Of a stretch of DNA of 64,000 nucleotides, positions 1-45,892 are shown in pieces (the first letter of the stretch is position 1; each line of letters opens with the position of its first letter). Source of the stretch: Acidobacteriota bacterium. Its GTDB lineage: Bacteria > Acidobacteriota > UBA890 > WLXD01. The notes below the pieces were generated by a model. That model saw only the letters and a program-made list of their open reading frames with translations, was not told the origin of the DNA and made no database searches. The DNA lies in contig JAJCXS010000263.1 in assembly GCA_029263335.1 (NCBI GenBank), positions 6,407 to 70,406 on the forward strand. Direction: 5' to 3'. The position numbers and the translations under genes were made by a program.

Positions 1-152
1 GAATGCCCGCACTTCTGCGATCAGGACTTCATACTCTGTATCGCCATGTGCGGAATAGCCATGGGAGATTGCGACGTGGATCCGGGCACGTGCGAGCGGT
101 CCCCGCTGGGCGTATAGCTCGCCGAACGGCCGTTGACGAACCGGAGCTAGGC

Positions 153-761
153 ATGCAAGCGGAACGCACGTCGCGAACCAGTCTCGCTGGTAGATTCCTG
201 ATCGTGAGTTCGATTGTCGTGGTCAGTGCGGTAGTGGTCGCGCTGGTCGACCAGAACCGACAACTCAAGGCCGCTCTCGGGAGTTCAGGATCGCCACAGG
301 CGCCCACGACCATCTCGTACGAGGCCGGTGACGAGCTGCCCAACATAGAGCTGGTGGGAATCACAGAGCCCGAATCGTCCGCTGGGCCACGCCTTCTGCG
401 AGATGTGGTCGGCGGAGCGGGCGTAGCGGCCTTTATGACGACGACCTGCCCGTACTGCGAGGAGGCGATTCCTAACTGGCAGCGGCTTGCGGAGGAAGTT
501 CGCGCGGATGGTTACAGGTTCGTGGCGATATCCCTCAGCATGCCAGATGTAACCGCTAGCTACGTTCGTGAACACGGCATTCGATACCCCGTTTGGGCGA
601 TCAACAGTCGATTTGCCTACGACAAGCTTCAGCTACGAGCGGTCCCGGCAACCCTATTGCTGGGCGAAGGGGCTTCCATCTTGGAGATAATGTACGGCGA
701 GCTACTCGGCGGAGACATTCGCGAACTCCGGGAGCGCCTGCTCGCAGTCGCGCCGAAGTGA
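153..761 (+). CDS. TlpA-like thiol-disulfide oxidoreductase (thioredoxin fold), membrane-anchored
   Basis: The ORF is 3..761; ATG at 153 precedes an N-terminal TM helix (FLIVSSIVVVSAVVVALV). It has a CPYC redox motif (TTTCPYCEEAIPNW). The stop overlaps the GTG start of the next gene (GTGA). The start could also be the ATG at 3. Confidence 0.65.
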   Translation: MQAERTSRTSLAGRFLIVSSIVVVSAVVVALVDQNRQLKAALGSSGSPQAPTTISYEAGDELPNIELVGITEPESSAGPRLLRDVVGGAGVAAFMTTTCPYCEEAIPNWQRLAEEVRADGYRFVAISLSMPDVTASYVREHGIRYPVWAINSRFAYDKLQLRAVPATLLLGEGASILEIMYGELLGGDIRELRERLLAVAPK

Positions 762-1906
762 GCGAGCACAGCGTCCCACTCAGCGACGGGCCGATCGGCG
801 TCAGGGTATTGGCGGCGCTGACATCAACGACCCTCCTGATGGCGGCGTGTGCGACGGGGCCGGAGATCCCGAGACCAGAGCCGCTCACTTATGAGCTGGA
901 ACGAATGTGGTCGGTTGGATGCACAGAATGCGATGGTCCTGCCCAATTCGGACGTCTAATAGACCTAGAGCTTGATCCCAGAGGTACGGTTCTCGCGTTG
1001 GACGCTAGAACTCCCTTCGTCCGTCGCATCACGGCTGATGGGAGCGCCGTTCAGGCCTTCGTTCACGATGGACAAGGCCCCGGAGAGGTCGAGTCCCCGC
1101 GGCTGGCCTTCAACACGGCCACCGGGGGGTTCGGTGTTGTTGAGTACTTTCGTCGGACGTTGCTACTCTACGATAGTAGGGGCGAGTATCTTCGGACAAT
1201 AGCTCTTGAAACTGGCCGAATCGTAACGGCCGACTACGCGCACGCGACATCGACGCTGCACGTCCTTCATGTGCCCATTCTAGAACGCGATGCGCCCTTT
1301 ATCCTGACGGCGGTCGGACTGGCACCGGGGGCCAAACCGGTTCGCGAGTTCTCGCAGTCACGTACTCGCGGAGTGGCGGCGCCAAGTTACTTCGTGTCGT
1401 TCGCGCGGGATTCAAACGGACGGGTGGCAATGGGTTTCGGGGATCGATACGAGATCATCCTCCTTGCCGCGAACGGAACGCCTGCCGGAGAGATACGGCG
1501 GTATCTCCCACGACGGCGGCGCCCAGCAGAGGAGGTCGAGCGACAGAGACGGGCAGTCGCAAGCGTCACCGGCACGTCCGGTCGGAACGTGGAGGTTGAC
1601 CTCTTCTATCGCCACTTCTATTTCGATGCGCTTGACTTCGCGTCGGACGGGAGTTTGTGGGTGCTGAGTGCCCGACGCTACGAGAACGGGACACTGTTTG
1701 ACGTCTTCGACGCAGACGGTCGGCTCTTGGGGTCGGCCGCGATCGATGGTTACGTGAAGCCCACATGTTCGTGTTTCGCTGTGGCCGGTCACCGGCTGGT
1801 GGCTGCAACGACAGGCTCGGACGGAGTTGATCGGGTTAGGGCCTGGCGAATTCCCGATTCACTGCGGTCCCGGACCCCGATCGATGCAGGGGCGAACTCT
1901 GGCTGA
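758..1906 (+). CDS. NHL-repeat 6-bladed beta-propeller lipoprotein (paralog 1)
   Basis: GTG at 758 is in frame with ORF 593..1906 and overlaps the TlpA stop. Lipoprotein-like signal (…TSTTLLMAAC). It has a CxxC (GCTECDG) and NHL-type motifs (GQGPGEVESP). The C-terminus ends VFDADGRLLGS, shared with the paralogs at 11233 and 15784. Confidence 0.55.
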   Translation: MSEHSVPLSDGPIGVRVLAALTSTTLLMAACATGPEIPRPEPLTYELERMWSVGCTECDGPAQFGRLIDLELDPRGTVLALDARTPFVRRITADGSAVQAFVHDGQGPGEVESPRLAFNTATGGFGVVEYFRRTLLLYDSRGEYLRTIALETGRIVTADYAHATSTLHVLHVPILERDAPFILTAVGLAPGAKPVREFSQSRTRGVAAPSYFVSFARDSNGRVAMGFGDRYEIILLAANGTPAGEIRRYLPRRRRPAEEVERQRRAVASVTGTSGRNVEVDLFYRHFYFDALDFASDGSLWVLSARRYENGTLFDVFDADGRLLGSAAIDGYVKPTCSCFAVAGHRLVAATTGSDGVDRVRAWRIPDSLRSRTPIDAGANSG

Positions 1907-2145
1907 GTCCGGCGACTCGCGAGTCGACTTTGGTGATGCGACTAGTATCAGTTGGTCGGTTGGATCTGATGTGCATGGAGCACGTCGAGTTCAGCGGCCG
2001 GTTCGGAGGGCGGGCTACTCGGTTCTTCTGGCACACCGCGTCGACAGCCGTGATGCGCTTCCGCGGTCGGCCGAATCTAGCACTCCGCGTCACCGCCTCA
2101 ACAGCTTTCGCACATGTGGATGCTGCACACCCAAGCGAGGATAGC

Positions 2146-2364
2146 ATGTTCAATATCAAGTACGCCGGATTGTTTATCTATTTCGGAATCGCTCTCGTGG
2201 CACTGTTCAACGCGGCGACCGCGATCAAGACTCGCTCGTGGACCGGATTCGGGCGCGACCTGCAGGGCTATCCCGCCTTGATCGCCGGTGGGGTCTTTCT
2301 ATTGGTGGGTGTGACTGCGCTAGTACAGCTTGGGCGTCTCGTACAGGTGGCGTTCACCGGCTAG
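2146..2364 (+). CDS. small hypothetical membrane protein (2 TM)
   Basis: ATG at 2146 has a GAGG 5 nt upstream. It encodes two hydrophobic helices (GLFIYFGIALVALF; LIAGGVFLLVGVTALV). It ends 7 bp before the IS end. Confidence 0.3.
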   Translation: MFNIKYAGLFIYFGIALVALFNAATAIKTRSWTGFGRDLQGYPALIAGGVFLLVGVTALVQLGRLVQVAFTG

Positions 2365-2535
2365 CTCGTTTGGGGTTACCTCACTTTGGTGGACACCTGA
2401 ACGCTTGGATCCAAGGGGCTGTGCGGATCGCGAAGCGATCTGCATGGTCACGGCAGTTTCCACCACCGTCGCCGGGTCTGATCCATGCCTCCGCTCGTAC
2501 TGGATCGGTGAGATACCGCCGAGCGCGGGGTGGCG

Positions 2536-3318
2536 TCAACGTGGGTTGTAGAAGCCTTCGATGAGCTCGAAGATCGCCATCCGCGCCTCCGCATGGGTGC
2601 GGAACGTGTTGCGCCACAGCAGCTCCGTCTCGAGCGTCGCGAAGAAGCTCTCGGCCATCGCGTTGTCGTGCGCATCGCCGACTGAGCCGATCGAGGGCCC
2701 TACGCCGAGCTGTTTGCATCGCTTCCCGAACTGGATCGAGGTGTACTGCGTTCCCTGGTCGCTGTGGTGGATCACCTGGTCGGGACGACGCTGCCAGATA
2801 GCCATGTTGAGCGCCTCGAGCAGCAACTCTGTGCGCAGGTGGTTGGCCATCGACCAACCCACCACGCGGCGGGAGTAGGCATCCAGAACGATGGCCAGGT
2901 ACAAGAACCCCGCCCAGGTTGAGACATACGTGATGTCCGAGACCCACAGCTGGTTGGCAGCCTCCGCGCGGAAGTTTCGCTTCACGAGATCCGGTACAAC
3001 CCGGGCATCATTGCCACGGCGCGTCGTCCGAGAGCGTCGCCGTCGGCTCACGCCTTCCAGTCGTGCCTGCTTCATCAGCTTCGCCACACGGCGCCGAGAG
3101 ATCCGCACTCCGGCTTCGGCCAGCTCGGCGTGCACGCGCGGAGAACCGTTCGTGACACGGCTCTCGGTGTGGATCGTCTCGATCCGGGCACGCAGGCGCG
3201 CATCTTCGCGCGCCCATGGACTCAGCGGCCGTTGGCGCCACGCGTAGTACCCGCTGGTGGAGATCTCCAGCACGCGGCACATCGTGGCAACCGGGTAGTG
3301 TACCTGGTGCTCGCTCAC
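2536..3318 (-). pseudogene. IS3 OrfB (DDE transposase), C-terminally truncated by nonsense codon
   Basis: A TGA follows …FYNPR where copy 2 reads CGA (R) and continues ~70 aa further. The DDE residues are still present. Confidence 0.5.
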
Positions 3319-3398: not shown

Positions 3399-3626
3399 CT
3401 AGAGCTGACGGTTCTCTCGACGTAGGCGCCGGATTTCCTCGCGCTCCTTGGTGCTCAGCCTCTCAGCTGTGTGCCCATCGTCGCGGTCCGCCTGCTTGAT
3501 CCACTGATGGATCGTCCAGTACGACGGCTCGAACTCCTGAGCCAGTTCGTAGGCGCTGCGGCCGGCTCTCGCCAGCTCGATGATCTGTTGCCGATATTCC
3601 GGCGGATACGGTTTCGTTCTTGCCAT
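3399..3626 (-). pseudogene. IS3 OrfA (HTH), prematurely terminated
   Basis: The start MARTKPYPPEYRQQ has a GGAGG 9 nt upstream. It ends …RRENRQL at TAG where copy 2 reads AAG (K) and continues ~33 aa further. The track ORF 3399..3740 over-extends 5' past the IS end. Confidence 0.5.
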
Positions 3627-3697
3627 GGTGGACATCCTCCACCCCAAGCTCGAGACCGTCCACGTAACCGAGGCAACTCCACCCTTGGAGATGGATT

Positions 3698-3744
3698 GGA
3701 GTTTGACTCGGCTATGTGCAGCTCCGCATAGCCGAGTCAACTCC
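3698..3744. repeat. stem-loop (18-bp arms, 10-nt loop) 17 bp outside the IS right end
   Basis: Arms are GGAGTTTGACTCGGCTATG and CATAGCCGAGTCAACTCC. The arm sequence resembles the IS terminal IR (GGAGTTGCCTCGG…). Confidence 0.5.
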
Positions 3745-3825: not shown

Positions 3826-4086
3826 CTAGATCGCGAACCGACACGCCTTCACTGTCACATGGTTTGGCGCGCTGTCGTACCATTGCGAGCACGTATCGCC
3901 GCTGGTCGAGCAGCTTTGCGCCGGGCCGCCACACGAGAGGATGTAGCCTGGACAATCTACTTCACAATTACCGCCCTGCGCCTGAGCCGTTGGCGCCGAG
4001 AGGAGCACGAAGCTGCTCGCAACAAGACAAAGACACGCGATCGGTACGTATAGCGCCTCGCGGAAACGGGTGCGTAATCGGTTCAT
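3826..4086 (-). CDS. small cysteine-rich secreted protein (86 aa precursor, ~49 aa mature, 6 Cys)
   Basis: It has a signal peptide (MNRLRTRFREALYVPIACLCLVASSFVLLSAPTAQAQ/G). The mature part is GGNCEVDCPGYILSCGGPAQSCSTSGDTCSQWYDSAPNHVTVKACRFAI. GAGG lies 7 nt upstream of the ATG. It sits between the two IS copies. Confidence 0.45.
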   Translation of the reverse strand: MNRLRTRFREALYVPIACLCLVASSFVLLSAPTAQAQGGNCEVDCPGYILSCGGPAQSCSTSGDTCSQWYDSAPNHVTVKACRFAI

Positions 4087-4504: not shown

Positions 4505-5503
4505 TTACCTCACTTTGGTGGACACCTGAACGCTTGGAGTTTGGGTACTCGTAGTAGTAGTGAAGTGGGAACTCGTGGGAGCCGCAGGGCGGCTTCCAAG
4601 GGGCTGTGCGGATCGCGCAGCGATCTGCATGGTCACGGCAGTTTCCACGTCCGTGACCGGCTCTGATCCATGCCTCCGTTCGTACTGGATCGGGGAGATG
4701 CCGCCGAGCGCGGAGTGGCGTCGACGTGGGTTGTAGAAGCCTTCGATGAACTCGAAGATCGCCATCCGCGCCTCCGCATGGGTGCGGAACGTGTTGCGCC
4801 ACAGCAGTTCTGTCTCCAACGTTGCGAAGAAGCTCTCGGCCATGGCGTTGTCGTAGGCATCGCCGACGGAGCCCGTCGAGGGACGCACCCCGAGCTGCTT
4901 GCATCGCTTCCCGAACTGGATCGATGTGTATTGCGTTCCCTGATCGGAGTGATGGATTACGTCCCCCGGCTGCCTTTGCCAGATGGCCATGTTGAGCGCC
5001 TCGAGCACCAACTCTGTGCGCAGATGGTTAGCCATCGACCAACCGACCACGCGGCGGGAGTACGCATCCAGAACGATGGCCAGGTACAAGAACCCCGCCC
5101 AGGTTGAGACATAAGTGATGTCCGAGACCCACAGCTGGTTGGCAACCTCCGCGCGGAAGTTCCGTTTCACGAGGTCCGGTACAACCTGGGCATCATTGCC
5201 GCGGCGCGTCGTCCGAGAGCGTCGCCGTCGGCTCACCCCTTCCAGTCGTGCCTGCTTCATCAGCCTTGCCACACGGCGCCGAGAGATCCGCACTCCGCCC
5301 TCGGCCAGCTCGGCGTGCACGCGCGGAGAGCCGTACGTGCCACGGCTCTCGGTGTGGATCGTCTCGATCCGGGCACGCAAGCGCGCATCTTCGCGCGCTC
5401 GTCGGCTCAGCGGCCGTTGGCGCCACGCGTAGTACCCGCTGGTGGAGATCTCCAGCACGCGGCACATCGTGGCAACCGGGTAGTGGACCTGGTGTTCGCT
5501 CAC
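4505..5503 (-). CDS. IS3 OrfB (DDE transposase/integrase), full-length frame
   Basis: 332 aa with the integrase core motifs. In the intact element it would be expressed as an OrfAB fusion by -1 frameshift, but orfA in this copy has a nonsense codon. Confidence 0.55.
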   Translation of the reverse strand: MSEHQVHYPVATMCRVLEISTSGYYAWRQRPLSRRAREDARLRARIETIHTESRGTYGSPRVHAELAEGGVRISRRRVARLMKQARLEGVSRRRRSRTTRRGNDAQVVPDLVKRNFRAEVANQLWVSDITYVSTWAGFLYLAIVLDAYSRRVVGWSMANHLRTELVLEALNMAIWQRQPGDVIHHSDQGTQYTSIQFGKRCKQLGVRPSTGSVGDAYDNAMAESFFATLETELLWRNTFRTHAEARMAIFEFIEGFYNPRRRHSALGGISPIQYERRHGSEPVTDVETAVTMQIAARSAQPLGSRPAAPTSSHFTTTTSTQTPSVQVSTKVR

Positions 5504-5811
5504 GAACTCGAACCCTTCTTGGGCACCGAGTCGGTCTCCTGTGCGAACCAGGCCGCGGCTTTTGCGAGGATCTCTCGCTCGACCTTGAGTTGACGGTTCT
5601 CTCGACGCAGGCGCCGGAGTTCCTCGCGCTCCTTGGTGCTCAGCCCCTCAGCTGTGTGCCCGTCGTCGCGGTCCGCCTGCTTGACCCATTGATGGATCGT
5701 CCAGTACGACGGTTCGAACTCCTGGGACAGTTCGTAGGCGCTGCGGCCGGCCCTCGCCAGCTCGATGATCTGTTGCCGATACTACGGCGGATACGGTTTC
5801 GTTCTTGCCAT
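5501..5811 (-). pseudogene. IS3 OrfA with nonsense codon at codon 10
   Basis: It reads MARTKPYPP then TAG (5782-5784), where copy 1 has GAA (E). Otherwise the frame is full length, ending …KKGSSS*. Confidence 0.5.
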
Positions 5812-5866
5812 GGTGGACATCCTCCACCCCAAGCTCTAGACCGTCCACGTAACTGAGGCAACTCCA

Positions 5867-6553
5867 GCCTATGGCTTTGGCGACCTCGAGGGGGCTGCGG
5901 AGGGGTTCGGCCGCGCGGCCGAGGCAGCGCCGACGGTGGGGGACCCATTCTTTGGGTTGGCGTTGACCTACGAGGCGCTCGGAGAATGGGAGGACGCTGC
6001 GGTTGCCTACGAGTCCGCGCTCTGGTCGCGGCCAGGTTCGCCGGTCTTCCATGCAGGCTTGGGCGCTGCTCTTCAGCACTCCGGAGACACGGCCCGGGCC
6101 GCCTTGCACCTGGTGCGTGCGATCCGAGGGGGGATGTCGGGGGAGCAACTACGCGTAGGGCCGTTGGATGCCGTGGCCTCCACCGAGCAATCCCGGCGGC
6201 TGGCCGGCGTTCCGGTGCTTCACTGGCGGAGACCCAACGTGGCTAGCCTTGAATCGCAGGTAGCAGTTCGTGGAGCGGTTCTCGCCATAGGTCGGTTGCT
6301 GGACACTTCGCCGGAAGTGGTGCTGACGGAATGGCCAATCCAGGGCGTCCGGTCGCTGCACCTGCGCGTTGAATCTGTCGACGGAGCCGGGAATCGTGCC
6401 GAGACGGAACTCGAGCTGTACGACGTGACCGGCAAGCGTGTCGCGACTTGGCCGGTGCAGTTTGATGACCTGCGGGATGCAGATGAGGTGGCGCGTCTGG
6501 CGCGGGACGTGGTGACACGACTCCTTCGGCACGTGTCCGACGGAGAGTTGTGA
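5867..6553 (+). pseudogene. 3' fragment of a vWA-TPR family gene (paralog of 13683..15728), 5' end cut by IS copy 2
   Basis: The frame is open from the IS boundary, with no start. TPR-like repeats and a C-terminal region align with the C-terminus of the 681-aa protein (…DADEVARLARDVV… vs …NLDEVADELEASF…). Confidence 0.5.
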
Positions 6554-6557
6554 TCAA

Positions 6558-7095
6558 TTGTCCACCTTCGGATACCGCGAACGGGTACTGTGCCTGACGA
6601 CGGCTGATCGGGCTCGGCGTCGGTTCTCAGTCCGTTTAACGCCGCGCACCCCTCGAGCCTTCATTCTAGGGCTCTTCTTTGCCGTCACATCTTTCGTGGC
6701 CTGGCCGCAGGAGCGCCAGGGACCATTTCGTTCGACCGCGGGGGCCGTGACCATCGGCGTAGGCGTTGTTGATGGAGACGGCCGACTCGTGGCCGGCCCG
6801 GGCCCTGACAGCTTCTCCGTCCGTGTCGGAGGATCGCTCCGAGAGATCATCGACGTTCGCGAGATCGGCACCCCGCGCACGAGCGACGAGGTGGGGCGGG
6901 ACTTTGTCCTTCTGTTCGACCTCTGGACAGGGTTCCCGCGTCGTGGAAGAACGATCTCGCGACTCGTATCTGGTCACTTTTGCCACGGTTCCCGGCGACT
7001 CCGGGCTGCTGGCTGTCGATGTCCAGGTGAACGGTCCGGGCGTGAGCTTGTCGTGGGCCCCGCTGGAGATCTCAGTCCTGGCCCCGACTCGTTGA
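6558..7095 (+). pseudogene. frameshifted N-terminal fragment of an FRS-module/vWA family gene
   Basis: It begins with a signal-like segment, then QGPFRSTAGAVTIGVGVVDGDGRLVAGPGPDSFSVRVGG (the same module as in 8850..11048 and 13683..15728), then FVLLFDL. The frame breaks after that; a second frame continues to 7095. Confidence 0.4.
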
Positions 7096-7216
7096 CCCAT
7101 CGCAAGATCTTGCTTCGTCGAGCTCGCCCCAGAGCCGTACTAGAACGCGCGTGGACTGCTGTAACTGGCTGATCGGCACGGGCTCTACGTGGGAGTAGCG
7201 TCGCGCACGGCCCCGC

Positions 7217-7738
7217 TCAGTGCTGCTCGGGCGTAAACAGGACCTCGAAACTGTCGATGAGGCGGCCCTCGTCGTCGGAGCCGGCCGTGATCGCCATCAA
7301 CTCGCCAGCGTCCGTCAGGCGGTATGTGATTCGGCGCGGGGAGTCTTGGTCGGGAACGTCGCTGTGGAAGACGGCTTCGCGATCGGATGCACTTAGCAGC
7401 GTGAACTCGAGCGGCCGATCTTCTTCCCAGGTCGAGTAGTCAGGTCGGAAGTGCTTGAAACGCATCACCACGCGCTCCGCCTCCTGGGAGATCATCAAGT
7501 ACTCGACGAGAGAAACCCCATCGTCTTGAACAAGCCGGAAGATGCCCAGCATCGTTCCTCCGGCTGCCGGAGTCCAATGCTCCTCAAAGCTCCCCCCGAG
7601 ACCCTTGCCGTACCAGGAGCCGGCAAGCCAGTCGACGTCGCTGAGAACGGGCGTTGGTGTACCCATGCCGAGGCTGTACGCAGGGCAGGTGAGGAGGGCT
7701 GCAAGGGCGATGATCGCGGTTGCCGTCTTTCCGTACAT
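7217..7738 (-). CDS. secreted hypothetical protein
   Basis: Signal peptide (MYGKTATAIIALAALLTCPAYS). No recognised catalytic motifs. Confidence 0.4.
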   Translation of the reverse strand: MYGKTATAIIALAALLTCPAYSLGMGTPTPVLSDVDWLAGSWYGKGLGGSFEEHWTPAAGGTMLGIFRLVQDDGVSLVEYLMISQEAERVVMRFKHFRPDYSTWEEDRPLEFTLLSASDREAVFHSDVPDQDSPRRITYRLTDAGELMAITAGSDDEGRLIDSFEVLFTPEQH

Positions 7739-8849: not shown

Positions 8850-11048
8850 TCACTGGCCCTGGACCCATACCGGCAGCTCCGCAGTTGCCCGCGTGCCCGC
8901 CACGAGATCGTGGACGGTCATCTGGATCGTGTGGAATGACGAGGTCAGCGTGTGGGGCAGTTCGACGCCTGCTAGCACCTGGATGGCGCCGGTGGCCGGG
9001 TCGCGGTCTTGCTCGATCACCCGTGCGCGTTCTACCGCCACCACGTTGCCCGTGGGGTCGAGTAGTCTGATCTTGACCTCCCAGGTTGGCTGCAGCGTAG
9101 ATGGGTTGAGGGCGAATCCGTGCATCTGGGAGTAGAACTGCACGACGTCTCCCGGGGCCGCCGTGGCGATCGCCGCCGGGGTGAGCTCGAAGTCGCCGAG
9201 CGCGAAGGGGAACGCCACCGGGCCGTCTTTCTTGTGCTCCGGAGGGTTGTCTGGGTCGAAGCCTCGAAGCATGAGACCGGGGTGCTGCCAGTCGATCGCC
9301 ACCGGCCCGTCGATGAATAGCCCTGCACGTGACCGGTGCGGCACGGGCACATCGTCGGTGCGCGCGCTGATCAGGCCGACCTCCGCATCGCGGATAATCG
9401 TGCGCACCTGGTTGAGCCCGGGACCCGACCACATCAGGTTGTAGTAGTGGAAGGGCAGCCCCGCGCTGCTGCTGTTTCGCATTCGCGCGAGATCGAGGAT
9501 CACCTGGCCGTCCGCCAAGTCCATCATCGTGCCCGAGCTGTTTAGCAGGTAGCTGAACATCTCGAGCTCGACCGTGTCATCGTTGCCGGCCCCCGCTAGC
9601 GCTTCGAGTTGTTCCCATGGCACCTCCACGATCACCGCCACTCGGCTGATGTCGTTCTCGCCCGCGAACGGGGTCACGGCGGTCTCGAACGCCAGTGAGC
9701 TATCCACCAACCCCTTGCTGATGAACTCGGCTAGCTGCGCCTGTTGCTGCATGGGCGACATGGTCTCGAACTTGCCCGGCACGGTCAGCCGCGAAGCGGC
9801 CGAGGTCACGACCGCGGCGTCGCGCCGGACGCTAACGTCGATGTCGAAGCTATCCGGGTCCTCGGGGCGGCGGGGTACGGCCAGCACGTAGTAATTGCGG
9901 GCAGCACGCTCGATGTCGCTCAGCCCGCTCACGATCTTGTTGGTGTTCCAGACGACCGAGCCACCGGTCCCATCGGCCCATATCGTCAGCGAGTTTCGTC
10001 CTGACCTGGTCCTTGCGCCCAGGAGCGAGGGCCTGAAGTTCCCCGGGTCACTGCCCCGGTCGCGTCCACCGGCGAGGCCTGACACGTCGATCATATGCAG
10101 CAATGCGTCCGCTTCCCTCAGGTCCCCGACGGCATCGTCGATCGCGTCGCGCACGTCGGCGCTGCCAAAGCGCTCCTCCGACCCAATCGAAGCGAGGCCT
10201 TCGCCAGGGTTCGTCTGGATCCGATTGGAATCGGCCGCTAGCTCATCGAGAGACTTGCCCACGAGCACTCGGTCCTCGAACCCCTCGGTGAAGAACAGCA
10301 CATGCTTGCGCCCGCGGATGACTTGCATCAGTTCGCCTAGCTGTTGGAGCTGGCTCGCGTAGCGAGCGACGAAGTTGGTGTATTGGGCGAACTCGGACCG
10401 TTTCACCATTCCTATGATCTCCTCGATCGCAACATCGGCCTCGGTCTTGCCACCCGAGGCATCGCCCGCCCCGGCCGCCCCCTCCATAAGATCGGCGATG
10501 AAGCCGGCGCGGTCGATGTTGCGAGTGGCCTGGGTCAGTCCGAGCCCGTCGATCGCGGTCCGGATCTGCACGCGGTCGCGCGTCAGGGGCACGATCGTGC
10601 GAACACCTTCGACCACGTTGTAGGTGACGACACTGACGAGGTCCTCGGGCAGCACGCTCTCGTCGAGAAACGCCAACGCGGCCTTGCGCGCCTCGAGAAC
10701 ACCGCGCGGGGAGTTGAACGCGGCATCGAACAGCATGACCCACTGACGCCAGGCCGCCGCGGGCAACGAGGAGTAGGGGAGCGGCCCGCCGTCCCTGGTG
10801 CCCCGGGGCGCGCGATTGACCTCGTAGGCGAGGACAAGCTCCCGCGGCTCACCGTCGACCCGAACCTCGAAGTCCTGAGTCACCAGCCCGGGAACGAACA
10901 GGCCTTCGTCGTCGGCTACGTTCACCTGAAACTGGATCAGTTCCACGTTGCTGCGGAACTGTGGCCGGGGCAGCGACTGTGCCCATCCGACCGTCTTCGG
11001 GAGGCATGCCAGCAACACTAGAACCGTAACTCGCGCGCGCCAGGCCAT
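8850..11048 (-). CDS. exported vWA-domain protein with conserved N-terminal 'FRS' module (resembles the VWFA-related Acidobacterial domain family)
   Basis: Signal peptide (MAWRARVTVLVLLACLPKTVGWAQS). The N-terminal module is PQFRSNVELIQFQVNVADDEGLFVPGLVTQDFEVRVDGEPREL. A vWA core (VMLFDAAFNS…) follows, then a long C-terminal region. Confidence 0.65.
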   Translation of the reverse strand: MAWRARVTVLVLLACLPKTVGWAQSLPRPQFRSNVELIQFQVNVADDEGLFVPGLVTQDFEVRVDGEPRELVLAYEVNRAPRGTRDGGPLPYSSLPAAAWRQWVMLFDAAFNSPRGVLEARKAALAFLDESVLPEDLVSVVTYNVVEGVRTIVPLTRDRVQIRTAIDGLGLTQATRNIDRAGFIADLMEGAAGAGDASGGKTEADVAIEEIIGMVKRSEFAQYTNFVARYASQLQQLGELMQVIRGRKHVLFFTEGFEDRVLVGKSLDELAADSNRIQTNPGEGLASIGSEERFGSADVRDAIDDAVGDLREADALLHMIDVSGLAGGRDRGSDPGNFRPSLLGARTRSGRNSLTIWADGTGGSVVWNTNKIVSGLSDIERAARNYYVLAVPRRPEDPDSFDIDVSVRRDAAVVTSAASRLTVPGKFETMSPMQQQAQLAEFISKGLVDSSLAFETAVTPFAGENDISRVAVIVEVPWEQLEALAGAGNDDTVELEMFSYLLNSSGTMMDLADGQVILDLARMRNSSSAGLPFHYYNLMWSGPGLNQVRTIIRDAEVGLISARTDDVPVPHRSRAGLFIDGPVAIDWQHPGLMLRGFDPDNPPEHKKDGPVAFPFALGDFELTPAAIATAAPGDVVQFYSQMHGFALNPSTLQPTWEVKIRLLDPTGNVVAVERARVIEQDRDPATGAIQVLAGVELPHTLTSSFHTIQMTVHDLVAGTRATAELPVWVQGQ

Positions 11049-11232: not shown

Positions 11233-12597
11233 ATGAGTTCACGAGACAGGTGGGGGGGGCTTTGTCGCGGGCGGCGGCTCGTCCGGATGAACGCACTTGC
11301 CGTTGCCGCCCTGGCAGCCTCGGCATGTTGGGCTCCGGAGTCAGGGACAAGCGTGAGCGGTCCGGGCAGCTGGCGCGGCGAAATCCTGTCGGGCGAGGTG
11401 ACAACCGTACGTACCTTGGATGGTCTCGCCTGGGACGTGCCATACAGCCTTGACCTCTCGTTCAGCCTGGGTGCGGAAGAAGGCGCCGATGGCCCACTCT
11501 TCGGGGCACTGGGCGGGGTGGCCGTTGGTGAATCCAGAATCTACGCCGTCGATAACGAAGCCCAGGTGGTCAGGGTCTACGACCTTGGCGGAAGGTACGT
11601 GGGCGATATCGGCGGACCCGGCGAAGGACCCGGAGAGTTTCGATATCCGAAAGGAGTGGGGCTCACCGCCGATGGACGTCTGCTCGTTCAGGACAATTCA
11701 GCCCGAGAGATCCACGTGTTCGATGCGAGCGGGCAGTTCCTCGAATCGTGGCGCCGGCCGCTCATCACCAAGATCTGGGACGACCGGTTCCTCGTGACTC
11801 CCGAGGGGAAGGCCTTCATCTGGGAACTCCAGAACCCGGGCGAGGCCGACAGTGACGACTGGGCGATGACGCGGTATGGCCAGGACGGGCTCGAGGATCT
11901 GACCATCGCGACGCCCGCCTTTGGAGAGAACGAGGATTATGTGCGCTGGGGGCTCGGATGGGACGCTGGCGCAGCTGCTGAGCCGTTCGCCATGATCCGA
12001 CAGTGGGCGATGACTCCTGATGGAACGCTGGTGGTGGCGCCCGCTGATGAGTACCAGCTGGAAATCCGTCCTCTCGGCGGGGCTGCCTGGCACATAGAGC
12101 GCGCTGTTGATCGTGTCGCTGTGCAGCCAGGGGAGTTCGAATGGGCAGTCCGCAACATCGTTCTCGCGGCGCGCGCGCAAAGCCCGGGATGGGAGTGGAC
12201 CGGCTCGACATCGCCGGATACCAAGCCCTTCGTGAAGAGGGTGTACTGGGGCGGGAGCGGAACGCTCTGGGTTCTTCGCGAGCTGGAGGCTACGAGGGTT
12301 GCGGGCTGTGCGACCGCTTCCGAGGACCTGACCCAACGACTCGAACGACCGTGCTGGAAAGCGAACCAGGTATTCGAGGTCTTCGATGCCGACGGCCGTC
12401 TGGCGACGGTTGTCCCGTACACCGGCAGGATCCACCAGTTCGTGCCCCCGGTGATCTCGGACGACGCGGTCCTGATGGCAGAGGAAGACGCGAACGGGAA
12501 CGCGATCCTGTCGTGGTATCGCCTGGTGCCGGGACCGGGTGATGAGGGTCCCGCTCGGCGTTACGAGCGGCTAGACGGCGGTTCGGGGATCAGGTGA
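11233..12597 (+). CDS. NHL-repeat 6-bladed beta-propeller lipoprotein (paralog 2)
   Basis: AGGAGG lies 5 nt upstream of the ATG. Signal/lipobox (…LAVAALAASAC). NHL motifs (GGPGEGPGEFRYPKGVGLTADGRLLVQDNSAREIHVFD). The C-terminus carries a …RPCW…VFDADGRL motif. Confidence 0.6.
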   Translation: MSSRDRWGGLCRGRRLVRMNALAVAALAASACWAPESGTSVSGPGSWRGEILSGEVTTVRTLDGLAWDVPYSLDLSFSLGAEEGADGPLFGALGGVAVGESRIYAVDNEAQVVRVYDLGGRYVGDIGGPGEGPGEFRYPKGVGLTADGRLLVQDNSAREIHVFDASGQFLESWRRPLITKIWDDRFLVTPEGKAFIWELQNPGEADSDDWAMTRYGQDGLEDLTIATPAFGENEDYVRWGLGWDAGAAAEPFAMIRQWAMTPDGTLVVAPADEYQLEIRPLGGAAWHIERAVDRVAVQPGEFEWAVRNIVLAARAQSPGWEWTGSTSPDTKPFVKRVYWGGSGTLWVLRELEATRVAGCATASEDLTQRLERPCWKANQVFEVFDADGRLATVVPYTGRIHQFVPPVISDDAVLMAEEDANGNAILSWYRLVPGPGDEGPARRYERLDGGSGIR

Positions 12598-13682: not shown

Positions 13683-15728
13683 CTATTCGGGACGCTGGTG
13701 GATCCCTCGCACGGCCTCTTCGATCGTGCGGAACGACGCTTCCAGCTCGTCTGCGACCTCGTCGAGGTTCTGGGTGTCGTGTATTCGAAATGAAGTGGTC
13801 GCCCACTCGCGGCCCACGGGATCTTCCACGACCAGCTGTCCTTGAACGGCGATCCAGGGGCCGTTCGCGCTCGCTTCGGTGATTCGTATCCTCAGCAGGA
13901 GGTCACTGGACTCCAGTGCCCAACCGGTCTGCATGACATCTGACCTCTCGGCGAGGTTTACAACCGCGGCCGTCAATCGAGGTGATGCGAGCATCGCGAT
14001 GAGGCCCCCGGACGTTTCGGCTTGGACGGCGATCCGCGGGTTAACCGGTGGCTTCGTCAGGTCGACCGGACGGGCCGCTACGAGCTGCAGCTTCTCGATG
14101 AGTTCCGCGACTTCCGAACCTCGGTAGTGAGCGCTCAGGGCGCGTTCCCAGGCGACCTCGAAGTTCCCCACTTCGAATTGCGCGTGAGCGACTCGAGCAT
14201 TCAGATCGGGAAGCCACGGGGCATGTTTGCGGGCCTCCTCGAACGCCGGGAGACTCTCCTCGTGGCGGTACAAGCCAGCGAGAGCGAGAGCCCGGCCGTA
14301 GTGCGTGAGCCCAAGCGCCGGTCCTAGCGATACCGCTGTGCCGAACCGCTGTAGCGCCCGCTCGGTCTCTCCTTCCGCCAGTTCTCGAAAACCACGCAGG
14401 GCGACATCCATCGCCGCGCCTTCTGACTTGCCCTGACCTGTCACGAGATCCGCTACGGTCAGAACCTCCACGTCGTTGCGATCGACACGGACCTCGATTT
14501 CCGATTCCTGGATGAGAGCAGTTGCGTTCTCAGGGTCGGTGGTTGGCACGAAGCCGAGGACGTAATGCCCACGCAGCGCCTGCCCTAGACGTTCCATACC
14601 TTGAATAGCGGTGCGTTGTCCTCGTAGTTGCGTCTGGACGTACTTTCCGGTGTGCCTCTCGAACCTGCCCTTGATGGCCCGAAGGACGATTCCGCCCGTG
14701 TACTTGGCCAGGGTCTGGAGCGGGCCCACGTACGCGTCGTTTGCGTTCGCCAACCGCTGTCTCGTGCGGACGCTCGCGGTGGCGCGAGGCTGCATGGGAC
14801 CTACGGCGAGTGCGAAGACCGGGATGCCGCTGCCCCAGGCGCTTAGCAGCACGTCCTCCAGGCGTGCCTGGCTCGCGGTGTCTCGCTCGTCGGTCACCAT
14901 CACCACGGCGCGGCGGACTTCTTCGCCTTGCTGTTGCGGTCGGGTAACTACGCAGCTGCCCTGCGCGGGCATCGACGGCGTGATTCGGGCCGCGGGCGAC
15001 CGAAAGCGCATCAGCTGGGCGAAGTCTAGCGGCGAGGTGATTGTCACCGATGCGCCCGATCGTGCTCTCAGGGCCGTGAATGCAGCGATAAGGGAGTCGT
15101 ATGCAGCCTCACTCGGTCCGACCTGGGGTATCTGGTCGATCGTGTTCCTGAGTTGTGGATCTGAAGGATGCCCCCAAATGCCCTGGGCCACGCGCTCACG
15201 GAATGGGAGAAGGAGCACGCAACTCGATGGGTGAAGTTCGTCCAGAAGCGTATGGAAGACATCCCGTGACGACCATTTCATCATGCTCCCGCTGGCATCC
15301 ATGGCAATGGCCACTTCGAGGGGTCCGTTCTCAGGACCGAAGAACACCGACAAGGGGCGTTCTTGACCGTCCTGCAGAACGACGAAGTCCGACGGGTCCA
15401 GGTCCGTAACCGGACCGCCGTCCCTCGCGAACACCGCCACTTGAAGGCGGACGATCTCCGCTGTGGAGCGGAACGTCGGCCGATCCTGCATCCCCTGCGC
15501 AGTGGTGCTGTGCAGAAGAAGGGCCGCGGCAAGCAGACACGTCCTGTGCCGCTGGCGCTGCCCTGCGCGGGGGCGCCCCGCTTTCATGGGGGATGGGGTC
15601 TCGTCGGCGAGTCCCCAGACGACGAAACCACTGGCGACGCTCAGAAGCGACACGATGGCCGTGATGGCCCAGTTGGATAACAACGGCCGGCCACTAGTCT
15701 CGTCTGCCGCCGGCTCCCTACCGTTCAC
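13683..15728 (-). CDS. membrane-anchored FRS-module/vWA/TPR protein (paralog of 8850..11048)
   Basis: It has an N-terminal TM/signal, then the module DRPTFRSTAEIVRLQVAVFARDGGPVTDLDPSDFVVLQDGQERPLSVF. It has vWA (VAIAMDASGSMM), TPR-like repeats and a C-terminal domain. It is co-directional with the NHL gene 55 bp upstream. Confidence 0.65.
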   Translation of the reverse strand: MNGREPAADETSGRPLLSNWAITAIVSLLSVASGFVVWGLADETPSPMKAGRPRAGQRQRHRTCLLAAALLLHSTTAQGMQDRPTFRSTAEIVRLQVAVFARDGGPVTDLDPSDFVVLQDGQERPLSVFFGPENGPLEVAIAMDASGSMMKWSSRDVFHTLLDELHPSSCVLLLPFRERVAQGIWGHPSDPQLRNTIDQIPQVGPSEAAYDSLIAAFTALRARSGASVTITSPLDFAQLMRFRSPAARITPSMPAQGSCVVTRPQQQGEEVRRAVVMVTDERDTASQARLEDVLLSAWGSGIPVFALAVGPMQPRATASVRTRQRLANANDAYVGPLQTLAKYTGGIVLRAIKGRFERHTGKYVQTQLRGQRTAIQGMERLGQALRGHYVLGFVPTTDPENATALIQESEIEVRVDRNDVEVLTVADLVTGQGKSEGAAMDVALRGFRELAEGETERALQRFGTAVSLGPALGLTHYGRALALAGLYRHEESLPAFEEARKHAPWLPDLNARVAHAQFEVGNFEVAWERALSAHYRGSEVAELIEKLQLVAARPVDLTKPPVNPRIAVQAETSGGLIAMLASPRLTAAVVNLAERSDVMQTGWALESSDLLLRIRITEASANGPWIAVQGQLVVEDPVGREWATTSFRIHDTQNLDEVADELEASFRTIEEAVRGIHQRPE

Positions 15729-15783: not shown

Positions 15784-17142
15784 TCAGTCGGGGACGATCA
15801 AGCGATACAGCTGTAGAAACGAGTTGCCGTCGCGCCCTTTCATGTGAATGAGCACGAGGTCCCGGCGAACTACCGGATGCGGGATCAGCTGTGCGCCGAC
15901 GGGCAGGGCCACGGTTCCAACGTACGTTCCGTCCACGCGGAAAGCGTCCATAGAGTACGTATCTTCCCAACACGGCGACTCCCTGAATTCGTCCACCGTG
16001 TCCGCCGCATCGTTGCAGGCCGACCAACGCTTTCCCCTGCCAGCTCGAATCACCCAGAAACGACCGCGATCGTCCGCAGCGATACCGGCGAAGAAGGGCT
16101 TGCGCAATGGGAACGCGTCCCTGTTCGGTAGCCAACCCGACGCTGCAGTCCCCCGTTTGATCGCCGCCGCGACCCTTCCGCGATGCCAGTTGCCCTCGCC
16201 GAAGGCGATGGCCGATGCCTGTCCGCGAAGTTCAAGGTGGGCGCTTTGCAGCGTCCCGCCGTAGTGCAGGTCGATCAGCGGATCGTTCGCGATCCCGATC
16301 GCGATGCTGCCTGAGGGCGCCACCGCCCAGTGGGCCCGTGGGAAGAACGGCGCATCTATTAGGACCGTGTGTCGTTCGTTTAGCTGCAACTCGACGCGCG
16401 TCGCCTCGAAGCCGAGATGCGGTACGGCGCGTGTCTGTAGCTCTCCTCGCAAGTCGCCAGCGTAGGTGACGATAGACCACTTGTTCTGGTACGGACCTGG
16501 CCCTAGTCGTTCCATGACCGCTGGCAGCAAGACCGACCCGTCGGCAGCTACCACGAAAGCTACGTTGTCGACCGCCGTCGACCTCGTATCGGTCCGCGTC
16601 GATTCCAGGTGCGCTCCATTGGCGTCGAATTCGAGAAAGGACATCCGATCGCGGACCCAGACGTGACCCGCCGAGTCGGTCGTGATCACTCTTGGCGCCC
16701 CGTACTCCCCGGGCCCTTCTCCCTGACGTCCGACGAGGCCTGCATGAGTACCCCGAAAGTCAAAAGCATGGACGACCTGGTTGGCCGCAGCACCGTCAAG
16801 GGCATAGATACGGGTTGGGCCGACCGACATACTCTTCACGCTATTGAAGAAGTACTCTGGCCGGTTCTCCCCAGGCCCACCGATTGTTGCGATCAACTCC
16901 AGAGCGGCACGGGCACCCCACTCCGAGTCAGCCATTGAGCTGCCCGCCGCTACGTCTCCCCAGTCGCCGGCAACGCCGTCTTCCGGAGAGCCGTAGTCCT
17001 CGCGCCCCGCGAGCAAGGAGCCGACCGGCTCCGACTCGTCAGCACACGAGGCCATCAGCAAACTAGCAACCAGCAGAAGCCCGGCGAAGCGTTGCGAATC
17101 CAAACCACAAGTTGCGACTCCTCGCCAGACTTGATTTGACAA
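15784..17142 (-). CDS. NHL-repeat 6-bladed beta-propeller lipoprotein (paralog 3)
   Basis: Lipobox (LLVASLLMASC). NHL motifs (GGPGENRPEYFFNSV…; GRQGEGPGEYGAPRVITTDSAGHVWVRD). C-terminal …SPCW…FRVDGTYVGTV as in paralog 2. Confidence 0.6.
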   Translation of the reverse strand: MSNQVWRGVATCGLDSQRFAGLLLVASLLMASCADESEPVGSLLAGREDYGSPEDGVAGDWGDVAAGSSMADSEWGARAALELIATIGGPGENRPEYFFNSVKSMSVGPTRIYALDGAAANQVVHAFDFRGTHAGLVGRQGEGPGEYGAPRVITTDSAGHVWVRDRMSFLEFDANGAHLESTRTDTRSTAVDNVAFVVAADGSVLLPAVMERLGPGPYQNKWSIVTYAGDLRGELQTRAVPHLGFEATRVELQLNERHTVLIDAPFFPRAHWAVAPSGSIAIGIANDPLIDLHYGGTLQSAHLELRGQASAIAFGEGNWHRGRVAAAIKRGTAASGWLPNRDAFPLRKPFFAGIAADDRGRFWVIRAGRGKRWSACNDAADTVDEFRESPCWEDTYSMDAFRVDGTYVGTVALPVGAQLIPHPVVRRDLVLIHMKGRDGNSFLQLYRLIVPD

Positions 17143-17348: not shown

Positions 17349-17702
17349 GTGAAGAACCAACGTGGCACGGATAAGGTCGTTCTCGAGGACTTGGGAACCC
17401 GGATAGCCCGGCATCGCCTCAATCGCGACTGGACGCAGCGACGGCTGGGCGACGAAGCCGGCGTGTCGTTGCCGACCGTTTCGCGGCTCGAGCGGGGCGA
17501 GTCGACGAGTTTGGTGAACCTCGTCCGTGTGTTGCGCGCGCTAGGTCTGCTGGACAATGTCGCCGATCTGGTTCCGGACATTCCTTTGAGTCCAGTGCAG
17601 CAACTTCGCAGCAGCCGGCCGACGAAGCAGCGTGCGTCGCGGCGACGGCAACCCGACAAGGTCACTCGGCCGCGCCCCTGGCAATGGGGTGACTCACAAT
17701 GA
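17349..17702 (+). CDS. hipB: HipB-like XRE-family HTH antitoxin
   Basis: HTH_XRE (…RLGDEAGVSLPTVSRLERGE…). Its stop overlaps the hipA start (ATGA). It is preceded by an AT-rich region. Confidence 0.6.
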   Translation: MKNQRGTDKVVLEDLGTRIARHRLNRDWTQRRLGDEAGVSLPTVSRLERGESTSLVNLVRVLRALGLLDNVADLVPDIPLSPVQQLRSSRPTKQRASRRRQPDKVTRPRPWQWGDSQ

Positions 17703-18991
17703 CGCTGGCCGAGGTGCGGCTCTGGGGCCGGACGATTGGCGCTGTTTCTTGGGTCCCGGCGCAGAAGCTGGCGTTCTTCGAGTACACGCCTGAGTTCCGC
17801 GACAGTACGGTTGAGGTCGCGCCGTTGATGATGCCGTTGGGAGGTCAGATCCACTCGTTCCCCGGACTGGCCCACGAGACATTCCGGGGCCTGCCGGGGA
17901 TGTTGTCGGACTCGCTTCCCGATCGTTTTGGCAACGCGCTCATCGACGCCTGGCTCGCGCGTCAAGGTAGGGCGAACGACTTCAACCCGGTCGAACGGCT
18001 CTGCTACACCGGGGCGCGCGGCATCGGGGCGCTGGAGTTCCGACCTGCCATTGGTCCGGACCCGAATGACGGAGACGGGCTGGAAGTGGGACGCCTGGTC
18101 GAACTCGCCGCGATGGTGATCTCAGAACGCCGCGGCGTGGATCGTCGGCTCGATGAGGACGGCCTGGCGGAGATCCTGGGCGTGGGCACTTCCGCCGGTG
18201 GCGCGCGCGCCAAAGCCGTGGTGGGGTGGAACCCCGAGACCAACGAGGTGCGGTCCGGCCAGCTTGATCTGCCCGAGGGGTTCGCCCATTGGATCCTCAA
18301 GTTCGACGGGGTCAGGGGTAACCGCGATCGTGAGCTCGATGATCCTGCAGGCTACGGGCTCATCGAGTACGCGTACTCCCACATGGCACGCGCCGCCGGC
18401 ATCGCAATGAGCGAGTGCCGCATTCTCGAGGACGGCCCGCGCCGTCACTTCATGACGCGACGATTCGATCGCACCGACACCGGCGACAAGCTACACATGC
18501 AGTCATTGGGAGCGGTGGCGCACTTTGACTACAACCAGCCGGGGGCGGCCTCCTACGAGCAGGCGTTCGAGGTGCTGGCGCGGTTGGAGACGCCAGCTGT
18601 CGCGCGCGAGCAGTTGTTCCGGCGCATGGTGTTCAACATCGTGGCGCGCAATCAAGACGACCACGTGAAGAACACCGCCTTCCTGATGGACCGGGCAGGG
18701 AACTGGACACTGTCGCCTGCCTACGATGTGGTCTACAGCTACAACCCGACGGGCGCATTCACATCGCGCCACCAGATGAGCGTCAACGGCAAGCGCGATG
18801 GGTTCACGGTGTCCGACCTGGTGACGGTCGGCAAGCGGGCCCTGCTGAAGCGTGGCCAGGCCCAAGCGATCCTCGATGAGGTGATTGCGGTGGTCACGCG
18901 GTGGCCCGAATTCGCGGCCACCGCCAAGGTCGCCGAAGAGCACGTTCGCGCCGTAGCCGCCGCGCATCGACTGCGATGGCTCGACGCCTGA
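17699..18991 (+). CDS. hipA: HipA-family type II toxin (Ser/Thr kinase)
   Basis: HipA N- and C-terminal domains, with catalytic motif …NQDDHVKNTAFLMD…SPAYDVV. 430 aa. Confidence 0.8.
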   Translation: MTLAEVRLWGRTIGAVSWVPAQKLAFFEYTPEFRDSTVEVAPLMMPLGGQIHSFPGLAHETFRGLPGMLSDSLPDRFGNALIDAWLARQGRANDFNPVERLCYTGARGIGALEFRPAIGPDPNDGDGLEVGRLVELAAMVISERRGVDRRLDEDGLAEILGVGTSAGGARAKAVVGWNPETNEVRSGQLDLPEGFAHWILKFDGVRGNRDRELDDPAGYGLIEYAYSHMARAAGIAMSECRILEDGPRRHFMTRRFDRTDTGDKLHMQSLGAVAHFDYNQPGAASYEQAFEVLARLETPAVAREQLFRRMVFNIVARNQDDHVKNTAFLMDRAGNWTLSPAYDVVYSYNPTGAFTSRHQMSVNGKRDGFTVSDLVTVGKRALLKRGQAQAILDEVIAVVTRWPEFAATAKVAEEHVRAVAAAHRLRWLDA

Positions 18992-22194: not shown

Positions 22195-22446
22195 GTGCCG
22201 TACTCCCTGTGCGATCGTCGCTCGAGCCATCGATCGCAGTGTGACGCCTCACGTAGCGTGAGGGTCACGGGCGGCTACTCGCAGCGACGGAAAGTCCGTG
22301 ATCGCCTGGTGGAGACCTGTGATAATGCCTGCGCGGTCGCCGCTTTCGCGCGGCTCGCCGGAACTCATGCGGCCTGGAACAGACCCGAGCACAGTCGGAG
22401 TACGGCGCGGACCGCGCTGCTTCGCTGCCAACACGGTGGAAACAGA

Positions 22447-37921: not shown

Positions 37922-37923
37922 GC

Positions 37924-39701: not shown

Positions 39702-39707
39702 GATCGG

Positions 39708-45889: not shown

Positions 45890-45892
45890 TGG

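Follow-up and report, generated by a model that had tools for sequence, protein, structure and literature searches.

The 64,000-nucleotide (nt) window analysed here, which covers positions 6,407 to 70,406 (forward strand) of contig JAJCXS010000263.1 in the Acidobacteriota assembly GCA_029263335.1, opens with two overlapping genes, one for a thiol-disulfide oxidoreductase (redoxin) and one for an NHL-type beta-propeller lipoprotein. This pair forms the last two genes of an extracytoplasmic cassette of three, which runs from a cysteine-rich secreted peptide through a redoxin anchored by a transmembrane (TM) helix to a propeller lipoprotein. A first-pass annotation of the window had placed the pair at 3-1906 and interpreted it as a split form of NHLRC2, a eukaryotic protein in which a thioredoxin (Trx)-like domain is fused to an NHL propeller. 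The pair itself was upheld; the redoxin start at position 3 was replaced by the ATG at 153, and bases 1-117 belong to the gene upstream. We tentatively favour, at slightly less than even confidence, a reading in which the redoxin would manage the thiol state of the secreted products of the cassette, chiefly the cysteine-rich peptide, with the propeller as its docking partner.

The upstream gene context is provided by a 7,652-bp Logan contig (L002), which extends the window leftward. Its positions 5245-7652 correspond to window positions 1-2408 with 0 mismatches over 2,408 nt, and the contig ends at window position 2408. The triad is found twice on this contig, on one strand, at 782-1018 / 1102-1665 / 1670-2812 and at 5041-5361 / 5397-6005 / 6002-7150. 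The second occurrence includes the pair in the window; its genes are co-directional, with intergenic distances of 35 and -4 nt, and it contains no terminator-like site. In the first occurrence, a second TM-anchored redoxin with the motif CPFC (L002 1102-1665, + strand) precedes a second propeller lipoprotein (L002 1670-2812, +), whose GGAGG motif overlaps the stop codon of its redoxin gene. Between the two cassettes lie an AraC-type regulator (L002 2864-3568, +) and a third propeller (L002 3553-4719, +), the latter preceding the second cassette and followed by a terminator-like hairpin. Identity is 28% between the two redoxins (E 7e-11) and 18-23% among the propellers (23% between the redoxin-linked copies). 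Because both triad copies are so diverged, the order peptide, redoxin, propeller has been kept through deep divergence. An LptD-like protein and dcw genes are present within the window, which indicates that the replicon is a diderm chromosome. Since all three cassette products carry predicted export or anchor signals, they would meet in the periplasm of such a host or on the outward side of its inner membrane.

The first gene of the cassette is represented in the window by the C-terminal 38 codons of a Cys-rich secreted protein (1-117, + strand, frame 1; ECPHFCDQDF...SPLGV and stop). The complete gene (L002 5041-5361) encodes 106 amino acids (aa) with 13 cysteines in all, a signal peptide ending in LMAAPAQA before QSQ, and recurring CxxxC/CxxC/CC spacings; the GC content at third codon positions (GC3) of the entire open reading frame (ORF) is 0.78. 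Its counterpart in the other cassette (L002 782-1018) is a secreted peptide of 78 aa with 6 cysteines in the mature part, encoded from a GTG start with GGGAGA 7 nt 5' of it. A third paralogue of 86 aa, with 6 cysteines past a signal peptide ending in APTAQA before Q, is encoded at window 3826-4086 on the - strand, where it is stranded between two copies of an insertion sequence (IS) of the IS3 family. This peptide has the signal peptide and a CxxxC..C..C pattern in common with both cassette peptides, and matches the 78-aa peptide in BLASTP at E 0.007. Scans against Pfam, NCBIfam and PADLOC gave no significant family match for the Cys-rich peptides, for the extra propellers or for the small TM protein described below. 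The sole hit of these scans, to a CxxxC-repeat target of radical S-adenosylmethionine (SAM) enzymes at 15 bits (cut-off 50), was judged compositional. Two AraC-type regulators, at L002 22-855 (-) and 2864-3568 (+), flank the first cassette, and both have a short region N-terminal to the helix-turn-helix. As called, the start of the former runs ~70 nt into the ORF of the 78-aa peptide, and one or other gene model therefore needs adjusting.

The redoxin gene occupies 153-761 (+) and encodes a predicted membrane-anchored ResA/TlpA-type thiol-disulfide oxidoreductase of 202 aa. Two independent gene callers, NCBI annotation and the Logan caller, agree on an identical protein (P0007). A GGAG Shine-Dalgarno-like motif (143-146, +) lies 6 nt 5' of the ATG at 153, and GC3 in the redoxin frame is 0.50 for 3-152 compared with 0.67 for 153-761; the ORF listed as 3-761 is not a single gene. 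The description of the product as a thioredoxin-fold CPYC protein was borne out by its TCPYC motif (Cys codons 447-449 and 456-458) and by a Pfam AhpC-TSA (PF00578) match that scored 34.7 bits (cut-off 26; E 2e-8), with which the precomputed annotation of P0007 concurs. Its best solved relative is ResA in the Protein Data Bank (PDB; E 2e-7), with both CxxC and Pro aligned: in the HMMER alignment, TCPYC aligns with the CxxC of ResA and the A-V-P of the cis-Pro motif AVPAT with its L-P. C99, C102 and P165 of the redoxin are invariant in alignment A5. By inspection, a putative TM anchor was placed at about residues 15-32 (nt 195-248; RFLIVSSIVVVSAVVVALV), with three arginines just before it.

ResA, StoA, DsbE/CcmG and TlpA are the nearest named relatives of the redoxin, and a word-indexed protein search returned no close homologues. 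The NCBIfam ResA subfamily model matched at E 1.3e-9, below its cut-off, and the equivalog cut-offs were not reached for ResA (NF002854; 38.2 vs 170), StoA (22.3 vs 210) or MauD (11.3 vs 188.6). On these comparisons the protein is best described as a predicted membrane-anchored, outward-facing oxidoreductase of the TlpA/ResA superfamily. Because it falls far under every NCBIfam equivalog cut-off, it is orthologous to no characterised member.

The redoxin and propeller genes are probably translationally coupled, as judged from their junction. The TGA of the redoxin gene (759-761) overlaps a GTG (758-760) in the frame of the 593-1906 ORF, so the GTGA overlap reported in the first-pass annotation (758-761, +) is present; we propose it as a termination-reinitiation site. 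The callers place the start of the propeller gene differently, at ATG 905 in the NCBI model (P0001, 333 aa) and at GTG 758 in the Logan model (P0235, 382 aa). The GTG start is backed by a coding-like GC3 of 0.78 for 758-904, compared with 0.42 for the same frame upstream (593-757). In addition, the 49 residues it adds form a putative signal peptide that ends in the lipobox VRVLAALTSTTLLMAA followed by C. The only close homologue, P0002, starts at an ATG that overlaps the preceding stop as ATGA, with no start codon further 5' before a stop. The lipobox of P0002 (AMIG followed by C) aligns with C31 of the window propeller, the cysteine being invariant, and other N-terminal residues are conserved too. 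The public NCBI model thus begins the propeller 49 codons late and loses its signal peptide and lipobox. Within this cassette, the redoxin gene has its own GGAG and the propeller gene has none: no Shine-Dalgarno motif was found within 5-12 nt of GTG 758, the nearest GGAG being 23 nt upstream. This absence, combined with the stop/start overlap, fits termination-reinitiation at the propeller start. An overlap of 4 nt is the commonest type between same-strand bacterial genes and is therefore unremarkable per se, but it recurs as ATGA in P0002.

The propeller gene (758-1906, +) encodes a six-bladed NHL/DUF5128-type beta-propeller lipoprotein of 382 aa, as assigned by fold and profile searches, with a putative lipobox LLMAAC at nt 833-850 (C31). 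The earlier description of this protein as an NHL propeller was supported by its fold and by profile matches, and not by a Pfam match of the protein itself: neither NHL (PF01436) nor DUF5128 (PF17170) was detected in it at E <= 1. A profile of its relatives retrieves PF17170 and PF01436 proteins and, in the PDB, the TRIM71 NHL domain at 9e-62. Relatives were assembled as a set of 83 for domain content and as a 43-sequence alignment for modelling and invariant positions. The AlphaFold2 model built from the 43 sequences (predicted local distance difference test 78.7, predicted template modelling score 0.79) has six four-stranded blades, an N-terminal strand at 48-53 that is available to complete blade 6, and a helix at 257-271 between blades 4 and 5. 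Its best Foldseek matches are the NHL domains of Brat, TRIM2 and Thin (E ~1e-12); the predicted fold is six-bladed and NHL domains are its closest structures. The family is large, with 114,033 proteins at E <= 1e-3, mostly matches to the first two NHL blades; full-length members number 6,859 at E <= 1e-30. The invariant positions of the 43-sequence alignment are nearly all Gly or Pro, plus E110, and they include no catalytic-looking His/Cys/Asp cluster and nothing like a metal or nucleophile cluster. Since its invariant residues are of this kind, the sequence favours a role for the propeller as a binding scaffold.

The role we favour for the cassette begins with translation. Ribosomes that terminate on the redoxin gene would reinitiate on the propeller gene, tying propeller output to redoxin output. 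The CPYC site of the redoxin would control the thiol/disulfide state of the Cys-bearing products secreted from the cassette, and its main client would be the peptide of 6-13 cysteines, acted on by isomerisation or reduction during folding. The peptide is taken as chief client because it is common to both redoxin-bearing modules, and the propeller cysteines are not. The propeller may present the client as docking partner or scaffold, comparable to the NHL domain beside the Trx site in SOQ1 and NHLRC2. This assignment is made because the NHL domain in those proteins has been proposed as a Cys-free scaffold against the Trx active site (PMC6107167; bioRxiv 10.1101/2021.03.16.435614; bioRxiv 10.1101/2024.11.01.621559). 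In this copy, the CxxC/CxC quartet of the propeller itself is a possible secondary client.

The first-pass annotation had noted this quartet as a CxxC (GCTECDG) and conserved cysteine near the C-terminus of the propeller. Both elements are present: by comparison with the canonical NHL motif, C55 and C58 of GCTECDG (nt 920-931, +) lie in the loop that connects the N-terminal strand closing blade 6 with blade 1, and C337 and C339 of a CxC motif, TCSC (nt 1766-1774, +), lie in the first strand of blade 6. Their conservation is limited to P0002, which has GCVACDG and TCAC, and is not family-wide, as the quartet has no counterpart in P0003-P0006 or in either propeller paralogue on L002. On the strand topology, the quartet probably staples the closure of blade 6, through either two disulfides or a Cys4 metal site. 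It may be asked whether the redoxin is dedicated to the propeller, forming or repairing its CxxC and CxC disulfides, or whether the propeller CxxC is itself redox-active; we regard this as unlikely, though worth serious consideration for this particular copy. The GTGA overlap links the synthesis of both proteins, the four cysteines are conserved together in the sole close homologue, and by the secondary-structure map they sit where a staple would lock propeller closure. There is also a precedent in a dedicated Dsb pair serving the six-bladed propeller arylsulfate sulfotransferase (ASST), as mentioned in passages of PMC13426309 that cite Grimshaw 2008. Against this, the redoxin-linked paralogue propeller on L002 is without the quartet, and the propellers adjacent to redoxins in two distant loci (L063 and, as a candidate, L087) have only 1-2 cysteines, which is within the normal family range. 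P0002 retains the four cysteines, but its redoxin has lost residues 1-139 including the CxxC, and a far Cys-richer client is encoded directly upstream of each redoxin. Across the loci, redoxin-adjacent propellers contain 1-4 cysteines and the family typically 0-3 (mode 1-2), and redoxin adjacency does not track propeller Cys content. The suggestion of a dedicated oxidoreductase for the propeller thus keeps the tight gene pair in its favour and is weakened by the Cys-poor paralogue, the P0002 locus and the richer peptide client.

The cysteines of the peptides and propeller could alternatively serve in metal handling. The peptides would then bind metals such as Cu(I) or Zn in the periplasm, the redoxin would hold their thiols in the reduced state in the way that TlpA acts on ScoI/CoxB, and the Cys4 cluster of the propeller would be a metal site. 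TlpA-family enzymes typically keep metal-ligand cysteines reduced, according to the part of PMC6107167 that cites Abicht 2014, and both the repeated CxxxC/CxxC/CC spacings of the 106-aa protein and the four-Cys cluster of the propeller would suit such a function. We nevertheless consider it quite improbable, because the peptides match no copper-storage, metallothionein or Sco family, the locus showed neither a metal transporter nor a metal sensor, its regulators are of AraC type, and the two 6-Cys peptides look rather like disulfide-knotted peptides.

The first-pass annotation had also raised the question of synteny in relatives, which was found in part: the gene order recurs at the P0002 junction and in the paralogous pair 4 kb upstream, and the P0002 locus is rearranged. 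P0002 (L001 10001-11086; 45% identity) is the sole close homologue of the propeller in a word-indexed protein search. No other close relatives were found in GTDB genomes or JGI metagenomes with patterns derived from the alignment of the window protein and P0002, from which the propeller subfamily appears to be rare. The ORF upstream of P0002 (L001 9279-10004) is a chimera, in which ~170 unrelated residues are joined in frame to the end of a redoxin. Only residues 140-201 of the redoxin remain there, at 46% identity, and the CxxC half is absent in all frames. Type I restriction-modification, recombinase and transposase genes surround this locus.

Distant propeller loci were examined for redoxin neighbours with our own hmmsearch and phmmer scans; they comprised 80 genome loci, mostly from Aminicenantes and Gemmatimonadota, and 7 contig contexts. 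What usually lies upstream of a propeller of this family is a further propeller (52 of 166). Clear TlpA-like neighbours were present only in L063, where they are adjacent twice, and in L014, where a TPR-TlpA protein lies within 2 kb. In L063 (1203-8294, from the unrelated low-GC metagenome-assembled genome (MAG) CAZJXZ010000070.1), genes for a TPR-2xTlpA protein, a propeller, a LolA-like-TlpA protein and another propeller follow one another on one strand with gaps of 15-118 nt. The TPR protein has 1,176 aa and two TlpA-like domains, and the other fusion combines DUF2092/LolA-like and TlpA modules in 407 aa; Pfam AhpC-TSA matches at this locus at 1e-25. L087 (657-7207, from the Aminicenantes MAG JAMOVU010000135.1) is AT-rich, with four propellers of the family in tandem. 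A pair of secreted Cys-rich ORFs (121 and 87 aa) precedes a CPKC-bearing TM protein there, and the end of its gene overlaps the gene start of a propeller lipoprotein; this locus may be a distant counterpart of the triad and is treated as a candidate only. As redoxin neighbours among the distant loci are confined to L063, L014 and the candidate L087, the link between redoxin and propeller is recurrent but sporadic. In a further locus (L086 2-748 and 892-2046, from a Delongbacteria MAG), a fragment with a weak SPASM match (Pfam E 0.017) lies directly upstream of a family propeller. SPASM domains are found in radical-SAM peptide maturases, and the fragment hints that some family propellers sit in peptide-modification loci.

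These neighbourhoods also bear on whether the adjacency has any specific meaning. The redoxin could be a general periplasmic reductase for cytochrome c or copper-centre maturation, similar to ResA, CcmG or TlpA, that merely happens to lie on a mobile island in one operon with a lipoprotein unrelated to it. Its top named relatives are ResA, StoA, CcmG and TlpA; 4-nt overlaps are common; the composition is atypical with IS3 copies abutting the locus; and most family propellers have no redoxin neighbour. This explanation is nonetheless improbable in our assessment, given that the locus has the pairing twice, with just 23-28% identity between the copies, and that it recurs in the locus of the 45%-identical homologue and in L063. 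Moreover, the called genes of L002 and 20 scanned window ORFs included none for cytochrome c maturation, Sco or Cox, and the ResA model scores 38 against a cut-off of 170.

While we prefer the reading in which the redoxin acts chiefly on the peptide, several observations weigh against it. The triad has been found securely only in this genome, the P0002 locus lacking both the peptide and the active-site half of the redoxin, and a nearby redoxin is missing from ~85 of the 90 distant propeller loci. The CPKC protein of L087 was not confirmed as thioredoxin-like, as Pfam found nothing and hhalign gave a probability of 0.4 with the CxxC in register. The peptide genes are unannotated small ORFs, supported by signal peptides, high GC3, Shine-Dalgarno motifs and a weak similarity to one another (E 0.007). 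In addition, the redoxin sequence alone is compatible with a reductant, an oxidant or an isomerase. The TlpA/ResA family is usually reductive, and the CPYC dipeptide is that of the classical glutaredoxin motif.

The interpretation of the pair as a split NHLRC2 did not hold. It would require that an ancestral Trx-NHL protein, orthologous to NHLRC2 or SOQ1, be encoded here as two genes with conserved NHLRC2 function. The resemblance is real at the level of folds: a TlpA-like Trx module lies beside a six-bladed NHL propeller in human NHLRC2 and Arabidopsis SOQ1 as it does here, and both proteins turn up in the redoxin and the propeller profile searches. SOQ1 also has a similar topology, with a TM helix, a lumenal Trx domain and then NHL (bioRxiv 10.1101/2021.03.16.435614), so that both domains face an extracytoplasmic-type compartment. 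The motif that defines the NHLRC2 family, CC(I/V)NC in a Trx8-like domain (PMC6107167), is absent, however, and replaced by TTCPYC, and Pfam gave no Thioredoxin_8 match at E <= 1. In the redoxin profile search ResA (2.5e-29) far outranks NHLRC2 (2.3e-11) and SOQ1 (1.5e-10), and in the propeller search NHLRC2 and SOQ1 rank far under the NHL domains of TRIM proteins and Brat. There is no C-terminal beta domain, and the propeller ends 18 residues past its last blade strand. A Trx domain was present in 0 of the 83 propeller relatives, so the Trx-NHL fusions that had been suggested as a check were not found among them, and the two genes in the window are separate and in different frames. Bacterial homologues of NHLRC2 have, furthermore, been described as fused proteins (PMC6107167). 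Taken together, we find a split orthologue hardly credible.

Comparison with other known systems places the redoxin, by sequence, in the TlpA/ResA superfamily and the propeller among divergent NHL/DUF5128 lipoproteins, with neither falling in a curated functional family. ResA, TlpA, CcmG and StoA have in common with the redoxin a thioredoxin fold, CxxC and cis-Pro loop and, as predicted for the latter, an N-terminal anchor, and are typically encoded beside specific clients. They differ in their active sites (CEPC, CVPC or CPxC, in contrast to CPYC) and in their gene neighbours, which are cytochrome c or copper-centre genes rather than a Cys-rich peptide and a propeller. The class nearest to the propeller is that of the DUF5128/DUF4221 propeller lipoproteins of Bacteroidota and Acidobacteriota, which are uncharacterised (e.g. 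PDB 3S9J and 4RAA). Unlike these, the window protein is below Pfam detection, has the CxxC/CxC quartet and is probably coupled translationally to a redoxin, an arrangement that most members lack.

Judged by gene content, the nearest organisational analogues of the cassette are the mau cluster and the operon of ASST with DsbL/DsbI, with homology to neither. The mau cluster similarly combines a small Cys-rich secreted subunit (MauA, 6 disulfides), a propeller (MauB), a TlpA-like protein (MauD) and a small membrane protein (MauE), of which MauD and MauE have been implicated in small-subunit maturation in methylamine dehydrogenase (bioRxiv 10.64898/2026.03.05.709764). Its propeller is seven-bladed rather than a six-bladed NHL propeller, and no MauG or MauE is present here. 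Homology was rejected on the basis of the MauD model (11 bits against a cut-off of 189), the absence of Pfam matches for the peptides and the lack of cysteine in the downstream TM protein. In the second analogue, from E. coli CFT073, DsbL is DsbA-like and is partnered by a membrane protein resembling DsbB, the propeller is an enzyme in which one disulfide is essential, and there is no Cys-rich peptide. No DsbB/MauE-like partner is present in our cassette, where the downstream two-TM protein has no cysteines.

It is already known that periplasmic thiol-disulfide enzymes are encoded beside their clients, and the pair as first described is ordinary in this respect. What is undescribed is that a small Cys-rich secreted peptide, a TlpA-like redoxin and an NHL propeller lipoprotein are kept together through deep divergence; the conserved triad, rather than the pair, is the part worth following up. 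Our literature search returned nothing specific on DUF5128, on NHL with TlpA, or on NHL with Cys-rich peptides. If the three proteins cooperate, they would provide the first functional context for one branch of the large uncharacterised family of DUF5128/NHL propeller lipoproteins. They would likewise offer a separable two-protein test system for the proposed scaffold role of NHL in SOQ1 and in NHLRC2 (FINCA disease). A bolder proposal is that the triad is a distinct undescribed system, in which the propeller is an obligatory substrate recruiter for a redoxin that matures or controls secreted disulfide-rich peptides such as toxins, signals or bacteriocin-like products. We give this little credence at present. 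If true, it would make the pair a two-gene functional analogue of NHLRC2/SOQ1, and a simple bacterial model for an NHL propeller beside a thioredoxin active site. It would also mean that Gemmatimonadota/Acidobacteriota-like bacteria harbour a new class of loci for ribosomal Cys-rich peptides.

Downstream of the propeller, a small predicted two-TM protein (2146-2364, +; 72 aa, 0 Cys) has no family match and possibly belongs to the cassette as the last gene of the operon. The Logan gene caller extends it to 142 aa with a start at 1936. The absence of cysteine excludes it as a MauE/DsbB-like oxidase. Two IS3-family copies follow in tandem at 2371-~3800 and 4500-~5950 (genes 2536-3318, 3399-3740 and 4505-5503, all on the - strand; HTH_Tnp_1 and rve domains). 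They are ~91% identical over the compared 300-nt repeat and have a 39-nt terminal sequence in common (97% identical), which starts 7 nt past the last cassette ORF. The transposase ORF of the first copy is shortened to 260 aa, compared with 332 aa, and contig L002 stops at window 2408, slightly inside this copy. The cassette region has a GC content of 61% and GC3 of 0.63-0.70, compared with 65% and 0.75-0.85 for the other genes of the window. This atypical composition and the IS copies at its flank suggest that the region is an island gained by horizontal transfer.

Elsewhere in the window, the regions 17699-18991 (+), 33663-35339 (-), 36683-50810 (-) and 55544-57826 (-) together contain a HipA-like toxin kinase, a B12-binding radical SAM protein, part of the dcw cluster (FtsA, Mur ligase, penicillin-binding protein transpeptidase) and the LptD-like protein. 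A further two propeller paralogues of the DUF5128 type (~450 aa), as well as a TPR-NHL protein, are encoded at 11233-12597 (+), 15784-17142 (-) and 22195-23868 (+), and none of the three adjoins a redoxin gene. Beside these extra propellers lie large unannotated ORFs (8850-11048 and 13683-15728) with no Pfam match.

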